From the NCBI GenBank assembly GCA_051652765.1, contig JBOFUV010000156.1, positions 1 to 15,573 of the forward strand: a stretch of DNA of 15,573 nt, in the 5' to 3' direction. The translations under genes were made by a program, and so were the position numbers. The stretch comes from Microcoleaceae cyanobacterium (GTDB lineage: Bacteria > Cyanobacteriota > Cyanobacteriia > Cyanobacteriales > Microcoleaceae). The notes under the pieces are model-generated. The model had not been told where the DNA came from, did no database searches, and saw only the letters and a list, made by a program, of their open reading frames with translations. Of the stretch, positions 2,944 to 15,573 are shown piece after piece; positions within the stretch are counted from its first letter, which is position 1, and every line of letters starts with the position of its first letter.

Positions 2944-3066
2944 TAAACCCAATAAGAACATTCCAGGTAGAGTTGCTCCTAATTTTAGTTGATTCCCACT
3001 TCCTGCTAACAACACGCTATCCTAGATTGAATTATTGAGTAGATGATCTTCAGTCTCAAACGCTTT

Positions 3067-4134
3067 ATGGAAACTTTGGCCCGCCAGATCTCGATTGAAA
3101 AGACAAAATCCTCTCGTTTGCCGGGACTCGATTTGCACAATGTGCCGTTTGGCAAAGTTTTCAGTGACCATATGTTCTTGGCAGACTATCGAGAGGGTTG
3201 CTGGCAGCAAGCCAAAATTGTTCCCTATGGCCCACTGGAAATCGCTCCCTCTGCCTCAGTCTTGCACTATGGCCAAGCCGTATTTGAAGGCATGAAAGCC
3301 TACAAAAGTGCTGTGGGTCAACCTTTACTGTTCCGACCTCAGGCCAATTATCAACGCATCAATCAATCTGCCCAAAGACTGTGTATGCCACCCATCCCTG
3401 AAGAGATGTTTATGCAGGGATTAACTGAACTGATCCGACTGGATGCAGACTGGATTCCAAATGGCAGCAAGACTGTTCTATACATTCGACCCATTTACTT
3501 TGCAACGGAGGAAGCCATTGGTTTAAAGCCGTCCGCAACCTATAAGTTTGTGATGATCGCTTGCCCAGTTGGGTTGTACTACACAGAGCCGGTGAAGCTG
3601 ATTGTTAGCCAAACTTATATCCGAGCCTGTGAAGGGGGGACAGGAGCAGCCAAAGTCGCGGGCAACTATGCAGCAAGTTTACTGGCTGACCGAGACGCAA
3701 AAGCTCAAGGGTATGATAACGTCATTTGGCTAGATGCCATCCATCGGAAATATATTGAAGAATGTGGCACGATGAATTTAGCCTTTGTGATTAATGATGT
3801 CGTTGTCACGCCGAAATTAACCGGAACGATCTTAGCAGGAATTACCCGAGATAGTGTATTAACTTTGTTTCGCGATCTGGGAATTCAAGTTGAAGAACGA
3901 TTGGTTTCTATTGATGAAGTTGCTGAGGCGCATCAGTTGGGAACTTTGACAGAAGCATTTGGAATGGGCACTGCTGCTACGATTGCTCATGTTTCAACTA
4001 TTAGTTATCAGGGGCAAGATCTGGTTTTATCTCCGGTTTCGGAGCGTAAGTACGCCAATTTAGTCTTTGAGAAGCTAGAAGCGATTAAGACTGCAAAATG
4101 TAACGATCCTTACAATTGGATTGTAAGAGTTTAG
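3067..4134 (+). CDS. ilvE: Branched-chain amino acid aminotransferase (PLP fold type IV)
   Basis: Motifs FGKVFSDHM, LHYGQAVFEGMKAY, LYIRP, GGTGAAKVAGNYAASL (PLP lysine), EECGTMN, ILAGITRDS, GTAA. Start ATG 3067 (alternative 3043). Confidence 0.95.
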   Translation: METLARQISIEKTKSSRLPGLDLHNVPFGKVFSDHMFLADYREGCWQQAKIVPYGPLEIAPSASVLHYGQAVFEGMKAYKSAVGQPLLFRPQANYQRINQSAQRLCMPPIPEEMFMQGLTELIRLDADWIPNGSKTVLYIRPIYFATEEAIGLKPSATYKFVMIACPVGLYYTEPVKLIVSQTYIRACEGGTGAAKVAGNYAASLLADRDAKAQGYDNVIWLDAIHRKYIEECGTMNLAFVINDVVVTPKLTGTILAGITRDSVLTLFRDLGIQVEERLVSIDEVAEAHQLGTLTEAFGMGTAATIAHVSTISYQGQDLVLSPVSERKYANLVFEKLEAIKTAKCNDPYNWIVRV

Positions 4135-4320
4135 CTTTGTCATTTAATCTGATTTCCAGACAAGAGGATCACACTTCAAGAGGTGAACTCAATCAATCTA
4201 AGGTTAAGACTTGTTTTAACAAAAGCTCAAGCGATCAATGGTAAGCTCTAAATGAATTGTTGAAGTTGTTCAAGCTTCGGTGACTCTTATTTTTCTTTGT
4301 AGAGTTTTAATGTGAGACTT

Positions 4321-4857
4321 ATGCAACACAGAACGAATATTGAAAAAATCTTCGAAGCTTGCCTGTGGAAGTTCAGATTATTCACGATCTTACCTGTTAT
4401 TTTTGGACTATTGAGTACCTTGAATTTTTTCGTGATTGGTAGCTTTGACGTAGTTCGAGGGATTACCTATAACTTTGATTTTTCCCACGACCATACTGAT
4501 CGGACTAATGAAGCCATTTCCCGGATTATTACAGGAGTTGACAACTATTTAATTGGCGTGGTGTTGCTGATTTTTAGCTTTGGGATCTATGAGTTATTTA
4601 TCTCTAGAATTGATATTCGACTCCTCCATCAAGACGTAAAAATTCTTCAGATTTCATCTCTTGACCAACTCAAGCATAAGATTTTACAAGTTATTGTGAT
4701 GGTCTTAGTGGTGAGCTTTTTTAAAAAAGTTTTGACGATGGAAGTTAAGTCATCTCTTGACATGCTCTATCTAGCCATTTCAATTCTTGTTATTGCGATC
4801 AGCAGCTATTTGATGCACGCCCAATCTAGCAATAAGCACTCTGAACTAGGACTGTAA
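4321..4857 (+). CDS. YqhA (UPF0114) family membrane protein
   Basis: IEKIFEACLWKFR, VDNYLIGVVLLIFSFGIYELFIS and SLDQLKHKILQVIVMVLVV match the YqhA pattern; ATG 4321 (GTG 4312 alternative). Confidence 0.88.
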   Translation: MQHRTNIEKIFEACLWKFRLFTILPVIFGLLSTLNFFVIGSFDVVRGITYNFDFSHDHTDRTNEAISRIITGVDNYLIGVVLLIFSFGIYELFISRIDIRLLHQDVKILQISSLDQLKHKILQVIVMVLVVSFFKKVLTMEVKSSLDMLYLAISILVIAISSYLMHAQSSNKHSELGL

Positions 4858-4870
4858 GCCAAGTTGTCGG

Positions 4871-4930
4871 TTGAAAAGTTGCAAGTTGAAAAGTTGTAAA
4901 TTAAAAAGTTGTAAATTAAAAAGTTATGAA
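4871..4930 (+). repeat. Intergenic tandem repeat, 4 x 15 bp (approximately TTRAAAAGTTRYRAR)
   Basis: ttgaaaagttgcaag / ttgaaaagttgtaaa / ttaaaaagttgtaaa / ttaaaaagttatgaa read directly. Confidence 0.9.
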
Positions 4931-5033
4931 CTAGAGTGCAAGGAATGGCACTTTAGTCTTTATGTCCTCGTCAATTCTCTTAGGGTTGCTAAAGCCCGAG
5001 CAATTCTCCTCGCAAAGCATTTTTTAAGCGTTT

Positions 5034-5816
5034 ATGAAGCATTACTTTTCTGTTGCCCGTTGCAGCTACTGTTGGGTTCAAAACTCTTTTAGTTCAACTC
5101 ACAACTTGCAAACACTCTGGATTGTTCTGGCTAGCGTAGGGATCTTCTCAGTCGTCGAATTTGTTGTTGGAAGTTTGAGCCATAGTTTAGCGCTACAGGC
5201 AGACTCTGGGCACATGCTTTCAGATTTTGCTGCCTTAGGCGTGGCCTTGTTGGCAACCTGGGTAACTCGACAGTCTGGGCAAAGTAATGCTGTGCAGGGT
5301 GATGTCCCTCGTCACTCTCAAGTTGAGGCTATTGCAGCCCTGGCAAACGGTTTGGGGATGTTGAGCATGACGGGGTTTATTACCTGGGAAGCCCTGCGTC
5401 ATTTACACCATCCGCCTGCTGAAATTTTGAGTTTCCCTATGTTAATTACCGCAATTATTGGTTTAGGAATTAACGGATTTAATGCGATTTTACTCTATGA
5501 AAAAAGCCAGCAGAACCTAAACCTTAAAGGTGTTTTTCTGCATGTTGTCGCAGATACAGTCAGTTCTGTTGGGACGATTCTAGCTGCCCTGATGGTTTGG
5601 CTGCTCAGTTGGCATTGGGCAGACAGTGCTATCGGTTTAGCTGTGGCACTGTTTACCGTCTTCAGTTCAGTGCCTTTGATTCGGCAAAGCCTGAAGAGTT
5701 TGAACCAACCCGCACCAAATTCAACCTCAGATCCGGAAACACTAAGAATGCTGGGATTTCTAGAGATTGGAACCGTTCAACTGGATGCTGTCATTTTGCA
5801 AAAATCTCCCCACTAA
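5034..5816 (+). CDS. Cation diffusion facilitator (CzcD/ZitB-like) transporter, short C-terminus
   Basis: SLALQADSGHMLSD (TM2 HxxxD) and LNLKGVFLHVVAD (TM5 HxxxD), about six hydrophobic segments. Confidence 0.9.
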   Translation: MKHYFSVARCSYCWVQNSFSSTHNLQTLWIVLASVGIFSVVEFVVGSLSHSLALQADSGHMLSDFAALGVALLATWVTRQSGQSNAVQGDVPRHSQVEAIAALANGLGMLSMTGFITWEALRHLHHPPAEILSFPMLITAIIGLGINGFNAILLYEKSQQNLNLKGVFLHVVADTVSSVGTILAALMVWLLSWHWADSAIGLAVALFTVFSSVPLIRQSLKSLNQPAPNSTSDPETLRMLGFLEIGTVQLDAVILQKSPH

Positions 5817-5882
5817 CGTCAAAGGCTGCTATACAATTTGGGCGTTGCTTAACATTTGCTGACTTCAAACGGGCTGAACAGA

Positions 5883-7238
5883 ATGTCTTACTCCGTCGTC
5901 AACGTTCAACCGCCTTTAGAATTTCTGGCCCCTGATTTCAATCCTTGGGTGTTGCGGTTTTGTCAACTCGGAATGCCCCTGTGGATTCGGGTGAATACCC
6001 CGATTGCCGAGATTCATACCGATCAGATCGAACAGTTGGCGCAGCTTTACTCCCAGTTTCAACAGGGAAAAATTCGCTTCCTACTGGCATTTCGTCATCT
6101 CTGTGTGGATGATCCTTATCCCATCACCCAGCTCATCTGGAAACAGGTTCCTCAAATTGCTCACGAGCAGGGCATTCCCTTGAAAGACCTCGTTCATGCC
6201 CACTTCATGTATGATCGCGGCATTCCCGTTTGGGCCGGGGACTATGTTGCCTGGTTATTTCCCAAACTAGGGGGAACTTCAATTATTCGGGGAAAACTGG
6301 ATCGCCAGGGATTGCGGTCAGCCCGAGACCTGTTAGCGAATGGTCGCTTTCCCCTAGCCGCCGCCCCTGAAGGATCAACCAATGGCCATAACCAGCGGGT
6401 GAGTCCCTTAGAGCCTGGAATTGCTCAGTTGGGATTTTGGTGTGCTGAAGATTTGCAAAAGGCGGGACGGACAGAAGAAGTTTTAATTGTGCCTCTGGGG
6501 CTACAGTATTCCTATATTCAAGAAAATTGGGACGCGATCGCCCAACTGTTATCCCAAATGGAAGCGGACTGTGGTTTACCGCCCCATCTATCTACAACTC
6601 CTGCAACCTTTGAGGCACTCTATCCTCGGTTAGTTAATTTAGGTACTTATCTCTTGGGCCTAATGGAAAATTTTTACCGTCAGTTCTATCATCAGAATAT
6701 TACAGGGGATGAAACGGCTGATTTATTCATGCGGTTGCAGGAATTGCTGAATGTTGCGTTAAAAGTTGCTGAGGACTTTTTCGCAGTTCAAGCCAAGGGC
6801 AGCTTAACTGATCGGTGTCGTCGCCTAGAACAAGCAGGCTGGGATTGTATCTATCGAGAGGATATCAAAGATGTAGATGCCCTTCCCGCTGTTGAAAGGG
6901 GACTGGCGAATCGGATTGCAGAGGAAGCCAGTCTGCGAATGTGGCATATGAGACTGGTGGAGAGTTTTGTTGCCGTCAGTGGTCGCTATGTTCAGGAAAA
7001 TCCGACCTTTGATCGATTTGCCGAAACCAGTTTGATTCTGTGGAAAACCTTGGGTTGGTTAAAGGGTACTGAAACGGTTCGCCGCCCTAATTTAGGCAGA
7101 CAACGGGTAAAAATGACCGTGGCTGAGCCTTTGTCGATCTCCCAACGTTGGCCAGATTACAAGAATAATCGCCGTCAAGCCGTTGCTGATTTCACTCAAC
7201 AGTTGCAAGAGACGTTGGAAGTTATGGTTTCCAACTAG
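5883..7238 (+). CDS. Phospholipid/glycerol acyltransferase (PlsC-like, cyanobacterial long form)
   Basis: FRHLCVDD (HxxxxD), HFMYDRGIPVWAG, LAAAPEGSTNGH, PLEPGIAQLGFWC; ATG 5883 preferred over TTG 5856. Confidence 0.88.
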   Translation: MSYSVVNVQPPLEFLAPDFNPWVLRFCQLGMPLWIRVNTPIAEIHTDQIEQLAQLYSQFQQGKIRFLLAFRHLCVDDPYPITQLIWKQVPQIAHEQGIPLKDLVHAHFMYDRGIPVWAGDYVAWLFPKLGGTSIIRGKLDRQGLRSARDLLANGRFPLAAAPEGSTNGHNQRVSPLEPGIAQLGFWCAEDLQKAGRTEEVLIVPLGLQYSYIQENWDAIAQLLSQMEADCGLPPHLSTTPATFEALYPRLVNLGTYLLGLMENFYRQFYHQNITGDETADLFMRLQELLNVALKVAEDFFAVQAKGSLTDRCRRLEQAGWDCIYREDIKDVDALPAVERGLANRIAEEASLRMWHMRLVESFVAVSGRYVQENPTFDRFAETSLILWKTLGWLKGTETVRRPNLGRQRVKMTVAEPLSISQRWPDYKNNRRQAVADFTQQLQETLEVMVSN

Positions 7239-7311
7239 ACAGTATGTACTTGTAACCCCCCAAGGAATAGAGTATTGTAAGCTCAAAATCCTGATTTGAG
7301 GGGCACGTTCC

Positions 7312-8007
7312 TTGGTTCCAATTCGCGATGAAAATCCAGTCACGATTACCCCCTGGGTGACACGGGGATTGATTCTAGCCAACATCTTAGTCTTTATTTT
7401 TGAGCTAAGTTTGGGCTCAGATCAACTTGAATCTTTTCTCTACAACTGGGCATTTGTTCCCTGTCAGCTTGTTGGCGATTGTACAACTCAGCTTCCAGCA
7501 TCTCCTTTTCCAGAGTGGGTTACTTTGATCACGTCTCAGTTCTTGCATGGCGGCTTCGGGCACATTGCTGGGAATATGATTTACCTGGCGATTTTTGGCA
7601 ACAATGTAGAAGACTGCCTGGGACACTTCAAATTTTTTGTCTTTTATATTGCCTGCGGTGTTTTGGCGGCTCTAACCCAAGGATTCTTTGCCCCCGACGC
7701 TGCCATTCCAACTTTAGGGGCGAGCGGGGCGATCGCTGGAGTTTTAGGTGCTTACATCATTCGCTTTCCCCGAGCTAGGATTACGATGTTACCCTTGCCT
7801 TTTCCGATTCCAATTCGGATTCCTGCCTTCTTTTTTCTGGGGTTCTGGTTCGTCATGCAATTTGCCAGTGGGATTAGTAGCTTTAGTGTTCCAACAACAA
7901 CAGGTTCAGAAGGAGGAGTTGCCTACTGGGCCCATGCAGGCGGGTTTGTTTTCGGCGTTATTCTAGGGCCGCTGCTTGGTTTATTTTCTAATCGTTCCGC
8001 CAAGTAA
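7312..8007 (+). CDS. Rhomboid family intramembrane serine protease
   Basis: FLHGGFGHIAGNMIYL, catalytic GASG and AYWAHAGG motifs; N-terminal VPIRDENP; TTG start. Confidence 0.95.
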   Translation: MVPIRDENPVTITPWVTRGLILANILVFIFELSLGSDQLESFLYNWAFVPCQLVGDCTTQLPASPFPEWVTLITSQFLHGGFGHIAGNMIYLAIFGNNVEDCLGHFKFFVFYIACGVLAALTQGFFAPDAAIPTLGASGAIAGVLGAYIIRFPRARITMLPLPFPIPIRIPAFFFLGFWFVMQFASGISSFSVPTTTGSEGGVAYWAHAGGFVFGVILGPLLGLFSNRSAK

Positions 8008-8197
8008 GGCTTCCGGCGTTGCATAAATGTTGCAGTGCCAGCTCTGCCAACTTATCAAGCCGACCCGCTGCAACATCTTCCTCAAACTGCCGATCCCATA
8101 TCTCAGCATCGAATTCCGCAAACCAGACTCGGAAAGCAGCAAGCTCATTGGCAGACAGCTTACTGATAGCACTTTCAATTTCTTGCAGGCTACTCAT
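7988..8197 (-). CDS. Small antitoxin-like hypothetical protein (69 aa), C-terminus possibly replaced
   Basis: ATG 8197: MSSLQEIESAISKLSANELAAFRVWFAEFDAEIWDRQFEEDVAAGRLDKLA resembles a common small family usually found upstream of RelE/ParE-like genes (recalled, not searched); 3' end overlaps the rhomboid gene by 20 nt. Confidence 0.65.
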   Translation of the reverse strand: MSSLQEIESAISKLSANELAAFRVWFAEFDAEIWDRQFEEDVAAGRLDKLAELALQHLCNAGSLTWRND

Positions 8198-8246
8198 AAA
8201 AATTGTAGAAACGCAACAGTCTAAATGTGCATTCCCAATGGTACCG

Positions 8247-8549
8247 CTAAGACTTAAGTTTGTCCTCCCCTTGCTGCTTGCTTTTTCCTGCAATGGCAAG
8301 ACTAATGGCAATAGATCCCGTGACTCCAGCCGCTATAAAAGAACCTGAAATTGAACTTTGTAAAGATTCTAATTTTGGCTTATCTATGAAGTCGTCCCAG
8401 CGTAATAAGCTTTGACTTAACTCTCTTGTAATAGGATCTCTACTTTCCAGTTCTTTTTCAAATTTATTCTTCTCTGCGATCGCAAAACCTCCAAAAATTA
8501 GACACAAGATTGAGATAGCAAAGAACACTCCCTCAGCAACAGTCATCAT
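8247..8549 (-). CDS. Hypothetical membrane protein (100 aa), likely cassette gene
   Basis: Two hydrophobic segments; AAGG upstream of the ATG; lies just downstream of the attC at 8643-8731. Confidence 0.6.
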   Translation of the reverse strand: MMTVAEGVFFAISILCLIFGGFAIAEKNKFEKELESRDPITRELSQSLLRWDDFIDKPKLESLQSSISGSFIAAGVTGSIAISLAIAGKSKQQGEDKLKS

Positions 8550-8642
8550 TTACCTTATTGATAGTCCCATTCTTTAGCTCCTTCAACTTCAGACATAGCA
8601 AACATGGTGCAGAGTCCATCAAGACGTGTTGCTCACTCAGCC

Positions 8643-8731
8643 AGCTAATACCGCCATTCACCCGCCGCCAGAAACCTCTCGGACTGAACCAACCAACTAG
8701 ATGCGGTCGGTGTGCAACGAGATTGTTGTGC
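8643..8731 (-). repeat. attC-like site (R' degenerate)
   Basis: + strand: AGCTAAT-accgcc-ATTCACCCGCCGC ... GCGG[T]CGG[T]GTG[C]AAC-gagatt-GTTGTGC; 89 bp; 20 nt after the beta-lactamase stop. Confidence 0.72.
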
Positions 8732-8751
8732 TGCATCCTACAGTATATGAC

Positions 8752-9621
8752 TTATAACAATCTCAGATCCTTCAAACAACGGCGTGTGACCTCCATTCGA
8801 GCAGAAGCATCTTTCTCGTTAAGAATCTCGATATTGGTGGCGAAAAAGTAAACATCTTTTCCTTTCTCTAAGTACCCAACTAACCATCCAATTTGGGGTT
8901 TTACGCCATCGTCAAATCCAACCCAGCCTGTTTTCCCTCGTATGGTATAGTCTGGAGTTTTCTCTAGAACCATGATGTCTTTTACAATCGAGAGAGATCG
9001 CGCTTGAAAGGGTAAATCATTCTTGTAAAAACGGCGGAGAAACTGAATTTGCTGTTCAGGCGTGATTCGCAACTCTCCTCGTAACCAGAATTTGTCAATA
9101 TCTGCTTGACTCCCAATTTTTTGGTTGCCATATCCAACTTGCGTCACCCATTTTTGCATCCGGTTGTGCCCTACTCGACGAGCTAAAACCTGATAAAACC
9201 AATAGGCAGAGAGCTTGATTGCTTCTCTCATGTTCAGATCTCGATTCCATGCAGGCAGCTTTCTTTGAATGCCGTCCCACGTTAGAACCGCAATTTCATC
9301 TGAAATGACTCCCGTTTCCAGTGCAATGAGAGAATTCAGAATTTTGAAGGTAGAAGCAGGTAAAAAAGCAGTTGTGTTTCGAGATGGATTATGTTGAAAA
9401 ACGCGATCGCTGTTCGAGTCGTAAATTAGAATGGAACCCTCAATCCCTAGTTCTCGAAAGTGCGGCGCAAAATCGATGTTCTGTGCAACCTCTACACGAG
9501 TCGCGGATTCAATCGGCGAATTTGGCATTGTTGCGACTGATTGCACGGTCTGAACCAGGGCAGTGGCACTGCAACACAGCGCAACGAAAAAGATAATGAC
9601 AAAGCGAAACCTTTGATTCAT
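8752..9621 (-). CDS. blaOXA: Class D beta-lactamase (OXA-like) with signal peptide
   Basis: PASTFK (SxxK), SAYW at the SxV position, YGN, FWL, KTG, GWLVG motifs; hydrophobic N-terminal leader. Confidence 0.9.
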   Translation of the reverse strand: MNQRFRFVIIFFVALCCSATALVQTVQSVATMPNSPIESATRVEVAQNIDFAPHFRELGIEGSILIYDSNSDRVFQHNPSRNTTAFLPASTFKILNSLIALETGVISDEIAVLTWDGIQRKLPAWNRDLNMREAIKLSAYWFYQVLARRVGHNRMQKWVTQVGYGNQKIGSQADIDKFWLRGELRITPEQQIQFLRRFYKNDLPFQARSLSIVKDIMVLEKTPDYTIRGKTGWVGFDDGVKPQIGWLVGYLEKGKDVYFFATNIEILNEKDASARMEVTRRCLKDLRLL

Positions 9622-9699
9622 CGGCTTCTACCAACTAGCAATAGGATGAGCAGCCTTACTAAAGTTTTGATGCCGTCCGCTGCACCAGGGTTGTTATGC
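9604..9699 (-). repeat. attC-like site overlapping the HNH 3' end and blaOXA start
   Basis: Right arm is clear: GCCG[T]CCGCTG[C]ACC-agggtt-GTTATGC. Putative left arm GCGAAAC-ctttg-ATTCATCGG at 9604-9624 is less certain. Confidence 0.62.
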
Positions 9700-10160
9700 T
9701 GCCAGATCAACCGGTTAATGTGTGGATCATTAGTAGGCGGATGCCAACCACCGCGAATCCAGAGACGACGGGCACGCTGAATAGAGCCATCATCATGCCA
9801 ATCGTCATTCATATCTAAGCGTTGAATCGTGGCACGTCCGATCGGAGCGATACCTATAATTCTTTGTCCATCGGCAGACCAGATAAAATGCTCTGACCAT
9901 TGATTTTGTCTGGGGTTGAAAAGCGGAAAATTCTCCTGGGTATCAGGATCGATGCCATCTGTAAAGTTGTAGCGGTGACCATTGCAGCGATGGCAGGCAA
10001 GGGCAAGGTTATCTTCGGCATCTGTACCACCTAGGGACTGAGGTATCAGGTGGTCAAAGGTGAAAAGAGATGCACTGGCTTCTTCCGAGGAATGACAATA
10101 CTCGCACAAGAAATTAGCGCGTTGACGAATGCATTGACGGCTGGCAATGCTGATGGTCAT
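9618..10160 (-). CDS. HNH endonuclease
   Basis: RANFLCEYC, DHLIPQSLGG, NLALACHRCN, LFNPR, HFIWS, GRATI..L.MN; C-terminal tail reads through the attC. Confidence 0.9.
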   Translation of the reverse strand: MTISIASRQCIRQRANFLCEYCHSSEEASASLFTFDHLIPQSLGGTDAEDNLALACHRCNGHRYNFTDGIDPDTQENFPLFNPRQNQWSEHFIWSADGQRIIGIAPIGRATIQRLDMNDDWHDDGSIQRARRLWIRGGWHPPTNDPHINRLIWQHNNPGAADGIKTLVRLLILLLVGRSR

Positions 10161-10396
10161 GACTCGGCAATAATGCGGGCATTCATCAAAGTAAAGATGC
10201 GGTCAAGTTCAGTAATACCAGCCAACTCAGCGGTTTCTTCTGAAGTGAGAAGGTTGACTTTTTGGCGCTCAATCAGAATTTCAAGGCGCAGTTGGAGTTG
10301 ATCGTTAAACTTAAAAAGATTAAGACCGCGCATCTTTTGGATTTTAATACCTTCTTCAATCCACGATGAAGGTTGTACCATTGTTTGAGTAATCAT
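10157..10396 (-). CDS. Small antitoxin-like partner of the HNH nuclease
   Basis: 79 aa, LQLRLEILIERQK..LLTSEETAELAGITEL pattern; GGAGAG RBS; ATGA overlap with the HNH start. Confidence 0.7.
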   Translation of the reverse strand: MITQTMVQPSSWIEEGIKIQKMRGLNLFKFNDQLQLRLEILIERQKVNLLTSEETAELAGITELDRIFTLMNARIIAES

Positions 10397-10407
10397 GGCG
10401 ATCTCTC

Positions 10408-10662
10408 CTATTCTCTAAGCGCGATTATATTTAAGGAAGCAATCTTGCGAATACTGAACCGTTTCTCTGTGAAATAGCATAGGCTGATAAAAGATAAGAA
10501 GCTGACGAGCCACTCTAAAGACACTGAGTATAAAAGCCCGACTGCTGTAATCAGGTAACCCATCATGATCAGGCAAGTATTATCAGCCTGAAGGATTTCT
10601 GCTCTTAGGGCAACGTATTCAGTTCTTCTGTCTTCTAGCTTTATTGCTTTGTCAGGTTCCAT
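10408..10662 (-). CDS. Hypothetical membrane protein (84 aa), possibly 3'-truncated
   Basis: EYVALRAEI followed by two hydrophobic segments; its stop abuts the RBS of the next gene. Confidence 0.55.
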   Translation of the reverse strand: MEPDKAIKLEDRRTEYVALRAEILQADNTCLIMMGYLITAVGLLYSVSLEWLVSFLSFISLCYFTEKRFSIRKIASLNIIALRE

Positions 10663-10828
10663 ATAGCTTACCCGCTAATCCAGTTTTCTGAAGTAAAAAT
10701 AACCCTAGCAACTTTTCCACAACATTCAAGTGGTGGTAATTAGCTAACCTTAACTTGATTTTACAAAAAATTGCCTGACATAGCTTGAAGACAAAGAAGC
10801 TCTTGACGAACCAAGACACTCGGCTGAA

Positions 10829-10915
10829 GTATAACGTTCCTGTTTAGCGGCGGTAGATAACCTTGAACTCTCGCCGATAACTTCTGTTCCATCCGCTCCA
10901 ATCGGGTTGTTAGGC
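10829..10915 (-). repeat. attC-like site
   Basis: GTATAAC-gttcct-GTTTAGCGGCGG ... CCATCCGCTC[C]AAT-cgggtt-GTTAGGC; 87 bp; 6 nt after the hydrolase stop. Confidence 0.82.
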
Positions 10916-10921
10916 TGTTTC

Positions 10922-11770
10922 TCACGGTGATACAGTTTGCTTCTCTATCGCTTCAAAAATAACAGACCAGTCGCCGCGATGCAATTCGTGTCCTGTTCCA
11001 GGCAATGATAGTAATATAGACTCCTGGATTTTCGCTTTCAATACCAAGCTATGGGCATAGGGTAAAACACGATCCTCTGTGCCATGAATAATCAGAGTTG
11101 GAACGGCGATTTCGTGGAGGTGGTTGAACCATTGTTCTCCACCTTGAAGCGAGGCATGATTAAAGGTCGTCATGAAATTGGGCGTTCGATCAAAGTCAGC
11201 CCCAGCTAATTCGCGGATCGCTGATTCATCAAACAGATGGGCTGAACCAGACATCAATCGCCATGCACCAATCTGATAGTCAATCACTGCCTCACGGTTT
11301 GCCCAATCCAGTTCACTAGCTTTCGCATGATACTCAAGGACAGATGAATCGATCCCTGGTATTGTTGGATCGCCTTCAGCCAAAGGTTCTGAGGCAATTA
11401 ACGTTAGACTTTTAACTCGCTGAGGATACTTGAGCGCCATGAGTTGAGCTAAGAATCCTCCCAGCGACATCCCTACTAAATGAGCGCTCTGAAGACCATA
11501 GCTATCAAGAACACAAAAAGCATCATCCGCTAGATCTTCAACGGAATAGTGAGTGTGACCTAGCTCGTAACTGGTTGAGCGCCCCGTGTCTCGGTGATCA
11601 TAGCGAATCACATAGCGTCCTAGAGCAGCCAACTGACAGCAGAAATCTTCCGCCCACCACACGGCTGAAGACATCGCTCCCATAATCAATAAAATTGGTT
11701 GATCGCTTGGATTACCGAAAGATTCGGAAAAAAGACGAACCTCATTATGGTTAATCCATTTACTTTCCAT
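10922..11770 (-). CDS. estX: Alpha/beta hydrolase, EstX/EstT (macrolide esterase)/RdmC-like
   Basis: [38 protein letters not shown] nucleophile elbow, HGTED, GTGHELH; closely matches my recollection of the EstX cassette protein. ATG 11770 preferred because the longer ORF starts inside an attC. Confidence 0.85.
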
Positions 11771-11807
11771 ATCTTTTCGCATCTCGGCTTTCTTACATTC
11801 TATCAAC

Positions 11808-11899
11808 CTCGATTCCTGCATTTCACCATCATCAAAGATCAAATCATTTGGTCTTCTACAATAGCCATGCTTCGCACCGGTGCAGCGCGGTTGTTATGC
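11808..11899 (-). repeat. attC-like site (R' lost)
   Basis: Right arm CCGGTG[C]AGC-gcggtt-GTTATGC; left L' TTTCACC at 11821-11827; central hairpin aagatcaaa/tttggtctt; R' position reads CTCGATT. Confidence 0.68.
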
Positions 11900-11907
11900 G
11901 GCGATCG

Positions 11908-12312
11908 CTAGGTCATTGAAATTACTGGGTAATTATAACTTTCCTTAACGACTAAACCATCTTTCCAATAACCGATCGAAAGTTGATTGCTTTTATTATC
12001 AATGATCTGTTCAGCATATCTAATGGTGAAATCGTTGTACCAATTGGAAACTACAACAAAGTCATAACTGTGATCGGCTGAGACTGCAATATCTTGACTA
12101 ATCAATCTAGACTCTCTAAACTCGACCAACATTTCGTCGAAAAAGACAGCTCTTCCTTGGCGGCAGGCTTCTTTCCCTGTGGTGACCGTACCGTCGCCTT
12201 CAATCATCACAGTATCCTCAGAATAGTATTTTTCCAAGGCTACCGATGTTTGAAACGTAACAACTAAATTGTTAATGTCTGCCAACGCGGCTTGTAATTC
12301 TTCAATCGTCAT
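11908..12312 (-). CDS. SnoaL-like / NTF2 superfamily protein
   Basis: ALEKYYSEDTVMIE...TTGKEACR and C-terminal YWKDGLVVKESYNY pattern; ATG 12312. Confidence 0.75.
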   Translation of the reverse strand: MTIEELQAALADINNLVVTFQTSVALEKYYSEDTVMIEGDGTVTTGKEACRQGRAVFFDEMLVEFRESRLISQDIAVSADHSYDFVVVSNWYNDFTIRYAEQIIDNKSNQLSIGYWKDGLVVKESYNYPVISMT

Positions 12313-12417
12313 AAGCAAAATAATAAGGTTTTGAGAATTCAGAGAAAATTTTAGCTTACTGTTTTAATCACGTCCCACAAGTAATACTCTAATTGCGCCC
12401 TAGCTGTAATCGAAGCT

Positions 12418-12504
12418 GCATAACGGTGCGGTTCACCAGACGCAAAAGAACTATGTATACCACTGACAATTTAGATTCGTTCTGGTGCAGTGGGCTTGTT
12501 AGCT
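12418..12504 (-). repeat. attC site (best preserved)
   Basis: GCATAAC-ggtgcg-GTTCACCAGACG ... CGT[T]CTGGTG[C]AGT-gggctt-GTTAGCT; 87 bp; two extrahelical bases. Confidence 0.9.
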
Positions 12505-12532
12505 ATTTTTTGTCGCATCAGAACATGAAACT

Positions 12533-13107
12533 TTATGAATTCAATGTCTTTTCAATGCGGCGATCAGGAACGAGCCACATGACTGCAACCAGAACATACA
12601 ATGCACATGCAAGCCAAGAGGTTGCAAAAGCAAGTGGAATTGCAACTGCATAAATCAATACCGAAACTTTCCTTTAAGATCCCGACCGAGAGCGTTTGCA
12701 AGTGTGGAATCTTGGCCGTGGTGAAAAATAAGTGTGCGGGTTAGAGTGAAATAGGCGATCGCAGCCAACAATAGAACCGCACCATAAAGCGCAACAGGCA
12801 ACGCCGCAAAGTGATTTTCACCCATCCATGCGGTGGCAAAGGGAAATAATGATAACCAGAACAACAAATGTAAGTTTGCCCACAAAGTTGAACCATTCAC
12901 TTGTTGGACTACCTGAAACAGGTGATGGTGATTGTTCCAGTAGATACCAACATACACGAAACTCAACACGTAGCTTAGGAAGGTTGGAATCAGCGGAAGT
13001 AGCGCAGCTAGATCTGACTCATGAGGTATTTTCAACTCCAATACCATAATGGTGATAATAATAGCAATTACCCCATCACTGAATGCTTCTAACCTGCCTT
13101 TAACCAT
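12533..13107 (-). pseudogene. TMEM175 (DUF1211) potassium channel family gene with a 1-nt frameshift
   Basis: RLEAFSDGVIAIIITIMVLE and YWNNHHHLF motifs; ORF stops at GKFRY*, but the -1 frame from about 12668 continues VSVLIYAVAIPLAFATSWLACALYVLVAVMWLVPDRRIEKTLNS* (TAA 12535-12533). Confidence 0.85.
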
Positions 13108-13182
13108 TTTCAGGTGCGCTCCTTGTCTGCTTACCGCGTTGTCTAACCGCCGTTTGCAAAAATGGTTGTTCGGTTATCCACT

Positions 13183-13268
13183 ATCCATCAGTATAGCTAA
13201 GTAGCAGCAGATCACCTCAAACGTTGGATCAAGGTCGATCATCCATCCGCTTCAGCAATTTGTTAGCT
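13183..13268 (-). repeat. attC-like site (R' degenerate)
   Basis: ATCCATC-agtata-GCTAAGTAG ... gatcacct/aggtcgatc stem ... CCATCCGCTT[C]AGC-aattt-GTTAGCT; 86 bp; abuts the DUF5996 stop codon. Confidence 0.72.
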
Positions 13269-14210
13269 TTACACGGTTGGGGCACGCTCCAGAGTTGCTC
13301 GATCCCAATGTCCTAAATTTGCTGCTGCTTCATAAGTGCTTTGGAGAAAAGCAAGGATTACTGCATCTGGTTCGCTAGCTTGTCTTACGACCTCATAGGG
13401 TAGGATAAACTCTTGCAACTCCGAGCTATAGAATGCCCCCTTAGGCTGAACAGGATAATCACGGAACCCTTCCGGCGCAGGGTAAGCATAAGCGTAAAAA
13501 ATAGGCTCCACAACTGACCCACCCCCTGGCCAAAAGCCGCAACTACTGACTTCATGTGAATAGGCTTCTCGTGTGACCCAATCTGCCATATTCGGAACTC
13601 CCCCTGGATGTTCTGGCGCAAGACGACCGGAGAAACGAGTCACAGCAAGATCGAAGCTGCCCCAAAAGAAATGCACAGGGCTGGATTTACCAATAAACTG
13701 TGAACGGAATAAGGTCATGACTCGATCAACTTGCACGAGAATTCGCCAGAACCGTTGTGCGTATTCCGGATCGTAAGCTGCGTGTTGATAGTCCTGATCA
13801 AACGGGATTGGTTCTGACACTTCTTGCGGCATCGTCCAGATTCGGACTTCGATACCGATACTGCTCAATGTAGTCAGCACCGTTTGGTAAAAATCTGCAA
13901 CAGAGCGAGGAGTCAGGGCAATTCTTTTAGTAATGCCGTCGCTAGTGTCGATTTGTAGTTGATGATCGAGAAAATCAAAGCTAATTTGAAAGTTACGAGT
14001 TTCGTAAGGGATGGAAGCGGTTGTCAGTCCACGTGGTGTGACATAGAGAGTAGACTGCCACCAGTGATTGAGTTTAGGAGCCAATGCCAACCGAATTTTA
14101 CCGATGATTTGTGTCCATAGATGGACAGTTGTATAGGTATCTTGCCAGTCTGCTAGGGGCAAACTGGGCCAAACGATGTCAATGGGAGTACCTTGAACCG
14201 AAACTGCCAT
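13269..14210 (-). CDS. DUF5996 family protein
   Basis: WPSLPLADWQDT..TVHLWTQIIGKIRL, NHWW, SPVHFFWGSFDLAVTRFSGR, EAYSHEVSSCGFWPG; ATG 14210 with GAGG RBS. Confidence 0.85.
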   Translation of the reverse strand: MAVSVQGTPIDIVWPSLPLADWQDTYTTVHLWTQIIGKIRLALAPKLNHWWQSTLYVTPRGLTTASIPYETRNFQISFDFLDHQLQIDTSDGITKRIALTPRSVADFYQTVLTTLSSIGIEVRIWTMPQEVSEPIPFDQDYQHAAYDPEYAQRFWRILVQVDRVMTLFRSQFIGKSSPVHFFWGSFDLAVTRFSGRLAPEHPGGVPNMADWVTREAYSHEVSSCGFWPGGGSVVEPIFYAYAYPAPEGFRDYPVQPKGAFYSSELQEFILPYEVVRQASEPDAVILAFLQSTYEAAANLGHWDRATLERAPTV

Positions 14211-14336
14211 AATAAGCCTCAAATTAAAGAAAACATACTGGAAATCTATCAAAAGTTAGATGCTATTCACAACGTTTTTCCATTCGCCGGGTTAAAAACC
14301 GAGTGTTAAGGCAAGTTTCTTCACAGACCCCAAAAC

Positions 14337-14425
14337 TGCTAACAACCAAGCTCACCCGCTGCTGATAGCTTTGGGACTAATCCCCAATAGTACTATTGCA
14401 GGTCGGGTGCAGTGATTGGTTAGCT
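14337..14425 (-). repeat. attC site
   Basis: TGCTAAC-aaccaa-GCTCACCCGCTGCTGATAG ... CTATTGCAG[GT]CGGGTG[C]AGT-gattg-GTTAGCT; 89 bp; canonical 6/5 spacers. Confidence 0.9.
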
Positions 14426-14436
14426 TGACTTGGGCG

Positions 14437-14522
14437 AGCTGACTGTTTCTTAACTCAGCAAAACGACCAGCGCAGATGATGCAAACCCTCTCTCAAAATT
14501 CCGTTGCAACGACTTGTTAGCT
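14437..14522 (-). repeat. attC-like site (left arm degenerate)
   Basis: AGCTGAC-tgtttc... TCCGTTG[C]AAC-gactt-GTTAGCT; 86 bp, same length class as the other sites. Confidence 0.6.
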
Positions 14523-14577
14523 GGCGGTCTGCTCAGGATCTCTTAGGAGCACAGAGGTCAGCCAATATCCACCTGTC

Positions 14578-15066
14578 CTAGAAATTAGTTTTCTTAGCAT
14601 ATTTTTGCATAAGCTCCTGCACGATCGCCGTGGAAGTACGAAAGTTAGTTTGCTGAAGTCGTTCAATTGCTACAGCAAAGTCAATCAAGTTTTCACTAGC
14701 AGCTCGATCCAAAATACCCAAAACGCCAGTGAGGCCAAGCCCACGACTAGCCGCTAGGCGACGGGCTGCAAGATCATCAAGTAGGATAAGATCAGCTTTC
14801 AAGCTTTCCGCAAGCAAAATGGCGGCGCATTCTCCCGCGTCTAACTTGAGCAAGTCTGAATCAGGTTGAGTTGAAGTTGATTGAATAGTAAGCCATGTAG
14901 GCGGCGATGCAATCCATTGCTGCACGACGAGTGGAGCTTTGGGTGAAGCAAGCTCATCCCGAACAGTTTCAGGAATGAGGATGCCTTCAAAAAGACGAGG
15001 TAGAAGATCTATTTGCTCAATAACAACCAGATAAGAGATGGGCGAGGTGTTGGAAACAACCAGCAT
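14578..15066 (-). CDS. DUF3368 PIN-domain protein (putative toxin)
   Basis: VVSNTSPI, IPETVRDEL, LDAGECAAILLA, LILLDDLAARRLA, GVLGIL. Confidence 0.9.
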   Translation of the reverse strand: MLVVSNTSPISYLVVIEQIDLLPRLFEGILIPETVRDELASPKAPLVVQQWIASPPTWLTIQSTSTQPDSDLLKLDAGECAAILLAESLKADLILLDDLAARRLAASRGLGLTGVLGILDRAASENLIDFAVAIERLQQTNFRTSTAIVQELMQKYAKKTNF

Positions 15067-15069
15067 ATA

Positions 15070-15333
15070 TCAGGGCAACAGTTTTTTTAGTGTGGCGCGA
15101 TCGCCCTCTAAATCGACTTCAGTGTAGGCTGGTTCAGCTTGTTCGTGCTCAAGGAAGGCGTAGGTGTCCCAACGAGAGGTGAAGCCCAACATTTGTCCAA
15201 CCTCACCTGAGCCAATTAAGCCTTTACGATAAGCTTCGACAGCAAGAGCCTCAAGGAATCGTCGGCTGAGAATTTCGGGACTATCTGCCAGTTGATTAGC
15301 AATGTGATCGGGAATCTCAAGAGTGATTTTCAT
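15070..15333 (-). CDS. UPF0175 family protein (putative antitoxin)
   Basis: ITLEIPD, LEALAVEAYRKGLIGSGEVGQMLG..SRW, YTEVDLEGD; 3 nt upstream of the PIN gene. Confidence 0.88.
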   Translation of the reverse strand: MKITLEIPDHIANQLADSPEILSRRFLEALAVEAYRKGLIGSGEVGQMLGFTSRWDTYAFLEHEQAEPAYTEVDLEGDRATLKKLLP

Positions 15334-15389
15334 ATCAAGAATCTTCCAAACAGTTGCTGTTAAAGCAATACCTCTAAATTTGTTTCTCT

Positions 15390-15572
15390 TTAATCAGGAA
15401 CATGAATGAGACGATTCTCGATCTCCTGACCACCAGAGGTGAAAATTTGTAAGCGAATGACCTCTGAATCACTGGGTCGCCAAGCAACTTGATATCGACG
15501 ACTGCTGTTTTCCCATGTATAAATCCGGCGTTCGTTAGTCCCAGAAAGGGTTGCTCCGCTCAAAGATATAGG
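15390..15572 (-). CDS. 3' end of a hypothetical protein (start beyond window)
   Basis: Open frame PISLSGATLSGTNERRIYTWENSSRRYQVAWRPSDSEVIRLQIFTSGGQEIENRLIHVPD*; resembles a cyanobacterial hypothetical family (recalled). Confidence 0.65.
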   Translation of the reverse strand, partial: PISLSGATLSGTNERRIYTWENSSRRYQVAWRPSDSEVIRLQIFTSGGQEIENRLIHVPD

Positions 15573-15573
15573 C

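Follow-up and report, generated by a model that had tools for sequence, protein, structure and literature searches.

Eroded integron cassette array at a contig end of a Microcoleaceae cyanobacterium with scattered attI platforms

The window analysed here is the whole of contig C156 (JBOFUV010000156.1, positions 1 to 15,573, forward strand) of a 5.04-Mb Microcoleaceae cyanobacterium assembly (GCA_051652765.1; 158 contigs, 99.97% complete, 0.18% contaminated). This assembly is referred to as G000; other G numbers denote related genomes, and C numbers are contigs of G000 unless stated otherwise. A cyanobacterial origin is also suggested by the density of GCGATCGC sites (641 per Mb) and by one cassette gene, for which 11 named cyanobacteria were the closest carriers. 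Ordinary genes lie left of position 8007, the last encoding a rhomboid protease, and from 7988 rightwards every gene is on the minus strand and every attC site on the plus strand. The original prediction had read the stretch from 8643 to 14522 as an integron-type array with eight attC sites and no integrase in view, either an attC cluster that has no integron-integrase (CALIN) or the distal end of an integron. That reading stood, with the correction that several of the cassettes are fused pairs. The window is a real, eroded cassette array and, as it stands, a CALIN, because profile searches and a covariance model found attC sites in it and no catalytic intI. It is probably the tail of a pseudo-integron. 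The account that we consider likely overall is that it forms the distal part of an eroded array built by the integrase IntI, probably linked to a platform (attI with a truncated intI), and that the genome has about 22 units of this kind in scattered places.

The attC family was collected genome-wide. Of 64 candidate sites, seven near-duplicates were omitted and 57 non-window sites (39 from G000 and 18 from four other genomes) were aligned. Arm profiles were built from 34 non-window sites, and a covariance model, R2, from the 57; the bit scores given for attC sites are those of R2. The attC stem is supported by covariation, with 94% of cells paired and eight of 13 pairs changed on both sides, against 22–44% in slid controls, and this bears out the predicted attC architecture with the plus strand as bottom strand. 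The first extrahelical base was C in 57 of 57 aligned sites, a set whose selection favoured C. The usual base at this position is G, and a G-to-C change caused only a 2.7-fold loss in an attI × attC assay (PMC2727003). The attC of the class 1 estX cassette shares the extrahelical C, and this site (L209:2358-2428) has the same CCGGTG-C-AGC arm as a cyanobacterial subtype. Between 8600 and 14600 the predicted right-arm pattern was found seven times on the plus strand and once on the minus strand, compared with a mean of 0.79 and a maximum of 5 in 500 approximate dinucleotide shuffles; the three-base subtype at 8643 escapes the pattern. A single right arm scored at least 18 in the reversed genome, compared to 80 in the real one. 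With the arm profiles, strong right arms were detected at seven of the eight window sites and left arms only at 8643, 10829, 12418 and 14337. The conserved plus-strand right arms of the eight predicted palindromes were thereby upheld, whereas only four or five of the sites are two-armed according to the arm profiles and R2.

The eight window sites comprise three intact, one core-mutated and one decayed site and three half-sites. The R''/R' cores, a paired L stem and two to three extrahelical bases are all present at 10829..10915 (73.1 bits, 11 of 12 canonical-register pairs), 12418..12504 (60.8 bits, 12 of 12) and 14337..14425 (46.3 bits, 12 of 12). The site at 8643..8731 (37.5 bits) is two-armed and belongs to a subtype with three extrahelical bases that recurs on C17, C51, C52, C61, C64 and C134; it has nine of 12 canonical pairs in a register shifted by an extra bulge, and its crossover triplet is mutated from AAC to AAT. 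At 13183..13268 (31.3 bits, 10 of 12 pairs) a full-length site retains these features in part and has lost its AAC core. The predicted sites at 9604 (19 bits, four of 12 pairs), 11808 (no R2 match, eight of 12) and 14437 (13.6 bits for the shortened 14458-14522, six of 12) lack them and are half-sites, because their claimed left arms belong to gene leaders or to another cassette. At the first of these, 9604-9657 is the start and leader of a beta-lactamase gene, with 9622-9657 matching the leaders of related beta-lactamase genes, and what remains is an R''-L'' arm at 9658..9699 (right-arm score 30.4, no left arm). Similarly, 11771-11876 matches the esterase leader in loci L103, L104, L106 and L111, so that the claimed arm 11808-11876 is that leader and the half-site is confined to 11876..11899, without a covariance-model match. 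The third claimed left arm, 14437-14495, is the body of a gene-less cassette, joined at a CTCTCAA microhomology to half of a long-type (105-bp) attC at 14480..14522 that matches long-type sites on C34 and C22. The idea that decay strips only left arms was rejected, since 20 right-only and 14 left-only sites were found genome-wide. An Rfam search of the window gave no match.

The genes between these sites, all on the minus strand, begin with a small open reading frame (ORF) at 7988..8197, which we take to be antitoxin-like. It has no Pfam match, its paralogue adjoins an attC on C34, and its 3' end is cut at an inverted-repeat-like motif GGCGTTGC..AA (8015); the ORF forms the distal array edge against the rhomboid gene. 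The hypothetical ORF at 8247..8549 has no family match and is probably cassette cargo whose attC is gone. A class D beta-lactamase gene follows at 8752..9621 (NF012161, 282 bits, cut-off 250), and then, at 9618..10396, an HNH nuclease gene (9618-10160, PF01844) with a 79-amino acid partner (10157-10396); a paralogous pair occurs in the C17 array. A deletion at 9658..9699 fused the HNH cassette to the beta-lactamase cassette. Since that deletion the HNH frame has extended across what is left of the attC, and at 9618-9621 it ends in a stop codon that shares bases with the start codon of the beta-lactamase gene (ATGA), an arrangement that could couple translation of the two genes. The intact site at 10829..10915 belongs to a cassette with an alpha/beta-fold, EstX-like macrolide esterase gene at 10922..11770. 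A second deletion, at 11876..11899, fused to it the cassette of a 136-amino acid ORF at 11908..12318. This ORF had been labelled SnoaL, a label that found no Pfam or NCBIfam match. The site at 12418..12504 closes a unit with a TMEM175-family gene (12655..13107, PF06736) and a DUF5996 gene (13269..14252, PF19459), and the decayed site at 13183 is internal to this two-gene cassette. A second GTCTAAC lies at 13136-13175, 29 nucleotides ahead of the TMEM175 start, with a weak model match (7.8 bits); the TMEM175 cassette may really begin here, at one more eroded site. The intact site at 14337..14425 belongs to gene-less cassette X (about 130 bp when whole), the 3' part of which occupies 14426..14495 on the minus strand by blastn matches; paralogues of this site exist. 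Including the window copy, cassette X has 16 blastn matches at 94–100% identity across the arrays of the genome, with a whole copy at C82:9436-9567 and the first position at two attI sites (C50 and C67). It could be a promoter or RNA cassette. Further right are a DUF3368 (14578-15066, PF11848) and UPF0175 (15070-15333, PF03683) gene pair, which recurs in the C74 array, and at 15390..15573 a gene that the contig end interrupts, so that only its 3' half is present. A relative of the latter in G040 adjoins an attC.

The footprint of circular cassette insertion, which the original prediction had read from cassette ends, was evident genome-wide. The four variable end bases matched perfectly in 25 of 49 cassettes; permutation gave a mean of 4.6, and none of 20,000 permutations reached as high. 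The three end pairs predicted in the window read as stated and agree at 4/4 (the cassette labelled SnoaL), 3/4 (HNH) and 3/4 (DUF5996) of the variable bases. The bases past the attI crossover, which falls at AA|C, matched the first cassette's own attC at three or four of four positions in 10 of 11 measurable cases; two of the 17 matches of the attI regular expression (C15 and C52:48868) look spurious, and neither formed a cassette pair. A stop codon precedes the right arm in 46 of 87 cases, against 10.6% at random. The sites of 21 of 22 multi-site attC clusters lie on a single strand. In the only mixed-strand cluster (C22:53918-54500; L057:10919-11502) one attC and a BrnT gene are reversed within the array.

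Cassettes have also moved between genomes. A 2004-nucleotide contig of X1, one unrelated sequencing run that contributes this comparison as a single contig of a single run, matches 12444-14343 with 92 differences and departs from the window at both ends. Its left end is an attC arm with a different neighbour, and at its right end an attI-like sequence, one base shorter than the G000 motif, comes directly after AAC. A separate 555-nucleotide contig of X1 spans 11894-12362. The same two genes with the same attC as in 12418-14343 were found among other neighbours in G249 (92% identity) and G304 (89–90%); the internal site 13183 has been lost by deletion in G304, and in G249 (30.6 bits) it is as decayed as in the window. 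Because this unit recurs with other neighbours in X1, G249 and G304, the DUF5996 and TMEM175 genes travel as one cassette. Cassettes common to G000 and G002 are 89–93% identical, with flanks at about 67–81%.

Across G000, 83 attC matches at E ≤0.01 lie on 32 contigs in 46 clusters of 1–8 sites, and 45 of 63 two-armed sites are 86–87 bp long. Platform matches occur on 20 contigs and on C68, and of 20 attI motifs 15 have an intI start within 320 nucleotides; we count about 22 platform units scattered through the genome. The search for a tyrosine recombinase with the IntI insertion that had been suggested returned N-terminal stubs and no catalytic intI in the assembly: TIGR02249 stayed below its cut-off with N-terminal pieces only, and no IntI residues past 142 were found save Xer-type matches. 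TIGR02249 exceeded its cut-off in five of 61 genomes searched, and G016, G017 and G048 are cyanobacterial genomes with an intact IntI. In 12 of the 18 intI stubs the gene breaks off at nucleotide 63 and gives way to one common tail, followed by up to 15 copies of a 22-bp repeat. We rejected these truncations as IntI crossovers, as the junction is not at AAC. Among the 12 copies of this deletion allele the first cassettes differ and the sequence past the attI crossover varies. Two platform types are present in both G000 and G002, and since the common intI deletion sits on both types, platform copies must have recombined with each other. The tandem 22-bp repeat (1–15 copies; C116, L067:2473-2670, and about 20 other places) also occurs at places without a platform match on C101, C109, C134 and C144. 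Tyrosine recombinases of about 190–210 amino acids on C94, C116 and C87 (L001, L003, L005) consist of the catalytic domain only, lie in phage- or element-like context and are not IntI.

The stretch that separates attI from the intI start contains about five copies of a palindrome, TA.AC.GAAA.TTTC.GT.TA. A search that allowed one mismatch to its crossover-proximal copy, the 25-bp attI motif GAAANTTTCNGTMTAATAAMTAGTT, gave matches in 64 of 301 genomes of the order and none in the reversed control. Among 20 inspected matches, 10 have an IntI match upstream (one uninterrupted at high identity, six short pieces only), eight have a correctly oriented attC downstream within 1.5 kb, and 13 have either intI or attC. 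The motif missed G016 and G044 and is not universal. Two metagenome scans for it gave 0 and 12 matches, the 12 being unrelated and without any intI or platform match.

Any attI and intI had been predicted to lie to the right of the window. By tblastn with full-length relatives, the 5' half of the gene interrupted at 15573 was located at two contig ends, one closing C138 and the other opening C97. These contig ends are twins, as are those of C156 and C31. Both C97 and C138 carry, in the right orientation and 0.9–2.1 kb further right, an attI and a truncated intI, the stub probably lying 1–2.4 kb past the end of the window, and C97 adds two attC sites. The split gene and twin ends make it most likely that the window array continues rightwards to an attI and a 5' intI stub on C97 or C138. 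An attI between intI and the first cassette is present outside the window, and its link to the window array would follow from this join; no intact IntI lies beside the array.

Related genomes show a similar scatter. R2 matches occur in 32 of 61 genomes, the next highest count after G000 being 21 (the model favours the training genome). One- and two-contig genomes scatter alike: G044 has 17 attC matches at about 11 places, and G040 has 13 at eight places with intI stubs at four. In G002 the 10 platform matches lie elsewhere than in G000, and its almost full-length intI is interrupted by an internal stop; G001 has one platform remnant and no attC match. Sites are not gathered in a single long array at a conserved locus, given the 46 clusters and loci that differ between G000 and G002. 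As for the suggested comparison next to the rhomboid gene, its neighbours in G001 and G002 differ on both sides, no cassettes follow it in either, and gene order is not identical. Gene order is poorly kept within the genus and too broken to settle empty-site tests. In G016 (L042:757-19205) three intI genes, two of them intact, and a stub lie within 20 kb, each unit preceded by a near-identical block of an attC, a PIN-like gene and the 3' end of what is presumably a release-factor-like gene; this appears to be tandem amplification of whole integrons. In G002 an intI stub on its contig C63 (L039:2614-2902) is joined at nucleotide 209, at AA|C, directly to an attC arm, and the junction looks like a cassette inserted by IntI within intI itself.

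We propose that IntI inserted circular cassettes via the folded bottom (plus) strand of each attC, crossing at AA|C; the footprint is observed and the enzyme would be its author. Deletions later removed the L'-R' half of three sites, and mutation spoiled two more. Structurally the result is three blocks of fused genes: DUF5996 with TMEM175, the 136-amino acid ORF with the esterase, and HNH with the beta-lactamase. The first two, each between two intact attC sites, may still be excisable, and the third is probably locked by the mutated 8643 core. The 12 units that share one deletion allele have differing first cassettes with matching ends, which suggests that cassettes went on entering or leaving attI after the deletion and that integrase acted in trans, presumably from a since-lost copy or incoming DNA. 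We tentatively extend this, with somewhat less than even confidence, to a distributed integron in which about 20 platform copies without integrase would draw on one shared cassette pool, with integrase occasionally supplied in trans. In its boldest form the platform itself would move as an IntI-made cassette. As to how the platforms multiplied, we lean slightly towards duplication followed by recombination among the repeats; movement of the platform as a cassette by IntI is unlikely, and repeated import from relatives is more unlikely still.

Several observations weigh against this account or limit it. With 39 of the 57 training sites coming from G000, the R2 count in that genome is inflated, and some of the 49 cassettes compared for their ends are repeats of cassette X, so that the 49 do not count as independent. 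Folding of each plus-strand site alone as single-stranded DNA, a check proposed with the original prediction, succeeded at one of eight window sites only (14337: z −3.9, stem probability 0.92), and the other seven fold at z −1.1 to +1.4; as only 14337 is stable unaided, free folding counts against its own use as evidence. The join at 15573 is not bridged by reads, and C97 and C138 are indistinguishable as partners. In an empty-site test the flanks of four of four loci were not adjacent in G001 or G002. A search for the cassette promoter (Pc) in one platform copy gave two consensus matches against 1.6 expected. Finally, the assembly holds no contig under 1614 bp, so that an intact intI could have been dropped from it.

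It is very improbable that the repeats are repetitive extragenic palindromic (REP) sequences or miniature inverted-repeat transposable elements (MITEs) instead of attC sites, an alternative that the original prediction had itself named. The sites do occur genome-wide, with the 83 matches on 32 contigs, and most fold weakly, but they form strand-consistent arrays after gene 3' ends, have cassette-specific end matching, unconserved middles, a covarying stem and fixed bulges, and are linked to attI and intI. We also see little chance that the many platforms are artefacts of a mixed-strain assembly or that an intact intI sits in unassembled sequence. The 158 contigs, the many arrays that stop at contig ends, the lack of small contigs and the inflation of CALIN counts in draft assemblies (10.1101/2022.02.28.482270) would fit such an artefact; contamination of 0.18%, copies with different chromosomal flanks, the 10 platform matches in G002 and the like scatter in G044 and G040 argue against it. 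Equally improbable is an orphan CALIN, without a platform from the outset, that began with cassette insertion at a genomic attG site next to the rhomboid gene. The window itself is without attI or intI, cassettes do insert at attG sites (10.1101/2022.09.11.507474), and G001 and G002 are without cassettes after the rhomboid gene, all in keeping with such an origin, yet the only continuations of the gene interrupted at 15573 are on C97 and C138, and both have a correctly oriented platform.

A stronger competitor, which we nevertheless consider unlikely, is ordinary wreckage: one or a few sedentary integrons duplicated and then shattered by recombination at insertion sequences, MITEs or HIP1 repeats, with arrays inert ever since and first cassettes differing through deletions. 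The inverted-repeat-like motif of position 8015 is indeed concentrated at integron loci, where 156 kb of sequence delimited by hand contains 12 of the 46 copies against an expectation of 1.4, and platform far ends vary, with homology in two cases ending at GCGATCGC, a repeat that we take to be HIP1 and that has a density of 641 sites per Mb in the whole genome. One intI deletion on two platform types implies inter-copy recombination, and the tandem units of G016 with their duplicated release-factor-like 3' end, together with the poorly kept gene order, point the same way. Random deletion would not, however, place junctions exactly at AA|C of attI with bases matching the first attC at three or four of four positions in 10 of 11 cases, and near-identical cassette X sits in many arrays. 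The boldest form of the distributed integron is doubtful as well. IntI would insert a cassette at a GTT in or beyond intI, after which attI, promoter region and stub, flanked by attC, would be excised and reinserted to seed arrays. The G002 stub joined to an attC arm at nucleotide 209 fits this, as do C116, C138, C61, C71 and C146, which have a far-side attC or arm in the same orientation, and attI-bounded cassettes are reported to recombine in class 1 and 2 systems (PMC12901181). Against it, 0 of 18 G000 intI stubs end at AAC, the common allele ending at nucleotide 63; most platforms abut chromosomal genes via variable 22-bp repeats without a fixed end; and no empty site was found at the four loci in G001 and G002.

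Integrons had been called little characterised in this phylum, but Cyanobacteria are named among integron-bearing phyla (PMC4889954) and further cyanobacterial integrons and attC sites are published (PMC8352920, PMC2426708). The window resembles a CALIN as described in PMC4889954 in having at least two attC sites, no recognisable intI nearby and cassettes mostly of unknown or accessory function; the arrays of G000 differ in that attI and an N-terminal intI stub are kept, in about 22 copies per genome. A 2016 survey using a C-terminal profile reported 95% of CALINs without a nearby intI pseudogene (PMC4889954), and since the stubs described here are N-terminal, such a profile cannot see them. 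Among pseudo-integrons, a third or more of intI genes are reported to be pseudogenes and about 20% of carriers to have more than one intI, some by duplication, with intI inactivation common where LexA control is absent, Cyanobacteria included (PMC2426708, PMC3108266). Unlike those, G000 has about 22 copies and not a few, 12 of them with one deletion allele, and each attI has its own cassettes. Sedentary chromosomal integrons of the Vibrio and Xanthomonas type share the homogeneous attC family, the toxin-antitoxin and gene-less cassettes and the approximately 80 sites per genome; here these fall into 46 clusters of 1–8 sites in place of one long array, and the first extrahelical base is C. Insertion of cassettes at attG sites to give single attC sites lacking integron-integrases (SALINs; 10.1101/2022.09.11.507474) and delta-attI cassettes (PMC12901181) are alike in placing cassettes outside a complete integron and in recombining attI units, but the cases reported there involve single cassettes or arrays of class 1 and 2 and do not extend to a whole platform of attI and intI stub copied throughout a genome. 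Uptake of cassettes by natural transformation (PMC12614218) and gene-less cassettes (10.1101/2023.11.21.568050) have been reported.

The window alone is a decayed array of known kind; the dispersed multi-platform form was not found described. A search of mostly open-access literature gave no description of a cyanobacterium with many attI platforms in dispersed places, of an attI consensus for cyanobacteria or of the two enzymes discussed below as cyanobacterial cassettes; the supplements of PMC4889954, PMC8352920 and PMC12910000 may list such cases. A genome with about 22 attI platforms and no integrase is at odds with the notion of a single array that is expressed from one end. The origin of CALINs also becomes testable, given that searches with a profile of the IntI C-terminus miss stubs. 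The attI site has been reported as unknown for most integrons (PMC4889954), and here a single 25-bp motif locates it in 64 of 301 genomes from the order, the control giving no match. If the distributed integron is true, there would be many first-position (expressed) slots instead of one, many apparent CALINs would be hidden platforms, and cyanobacterial arrays would serve as a reservoir in which EstX-like macrolide esterases and class D beta-lactamases are kept in cassette form.

Two cargo genes look like antibiotic-inactivating enzymes, judged by their sequences. The esterase passed NF052610 narrowly (427 bits, cut-off 420) and fell below the cut-off of the EstX model (425 against 600); the triad Ser102-Asp233-His261 is present, with residues counted on the sequence in the numbering of PMC11214618. 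It has 76–88% identity to genes of 11 named cyanobacteria, in seven of which an attC starts 13 nucleotides past the match, one also having an attI-like site in front; a search at E 1e-60 of 200 genomes sampled from the order gave no match. EstX is of the same enzyme family with the same triad numbering and 63% identity, and the estX attC has the same C-bulge arm (26 bits on R2). At this identity the window esterase is a relative, not the direct source, of estX. Hydrolysis of 16-membered macrolides has been demonstrated for three other cyanobacterial esterases (PMC12910000). That paper describes insertion sequence neighbours; the word 'cassette' occurs in it 0 times, and 'integron' a single time, in connection with EstX. 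In the present comparison seven of 11 loci are attC-linked. The activity of cyanobacterial macrolide esterases was demonstrated in 2026, but they were not identified as integron cassettes. Their linkage to attC points to a mechanism by which they spread among cyanobacteria and makes them similar in kind to the estX cassette of class 1 integrons. In loci L103, L104 and L111 (about 3890-4870; Nodosilinea, Tildeniella and Phormidium) the esterase has the cassette leader and no attC, with a common upstream flank, and is apparently a domesticated cassette.

The beta-lactamase has the STFK, YGN and KTG motifs, and the SxV position reads SAY; its closest solved structure is 6nhs. It is common in the order (87 of 251 genomes) and attC-linked in five of 29 inspected copies, which indicates that most cyanobacterial copies are not cassettes. 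YbxI-like class D members can show very low activity, according to a paper on cyanobacterial class D enzymes (PMC13095955). The wider cargo is typical, with GNATs, toxin-antitoxin pairs, SnoaL, SDR and restriction-modification genes, and no further resistance family was found at E 1e-25 among the 77 cassette ORFs, 72 of which were searched against Pfam and 44 against NCBIfam. A listing of sequencing runs gave one DNA run (share 0.06) and no RNA run, with no bearing on expression. In the left part of the window, a 15-bp tandem repeat of about four copies lies at 4861-4920 between UPF0114 and cation-efflux genes, and a lone right-arm-like match at 3580-3610 (score 18.7) within an aminotransferase gene is probably due to chance.

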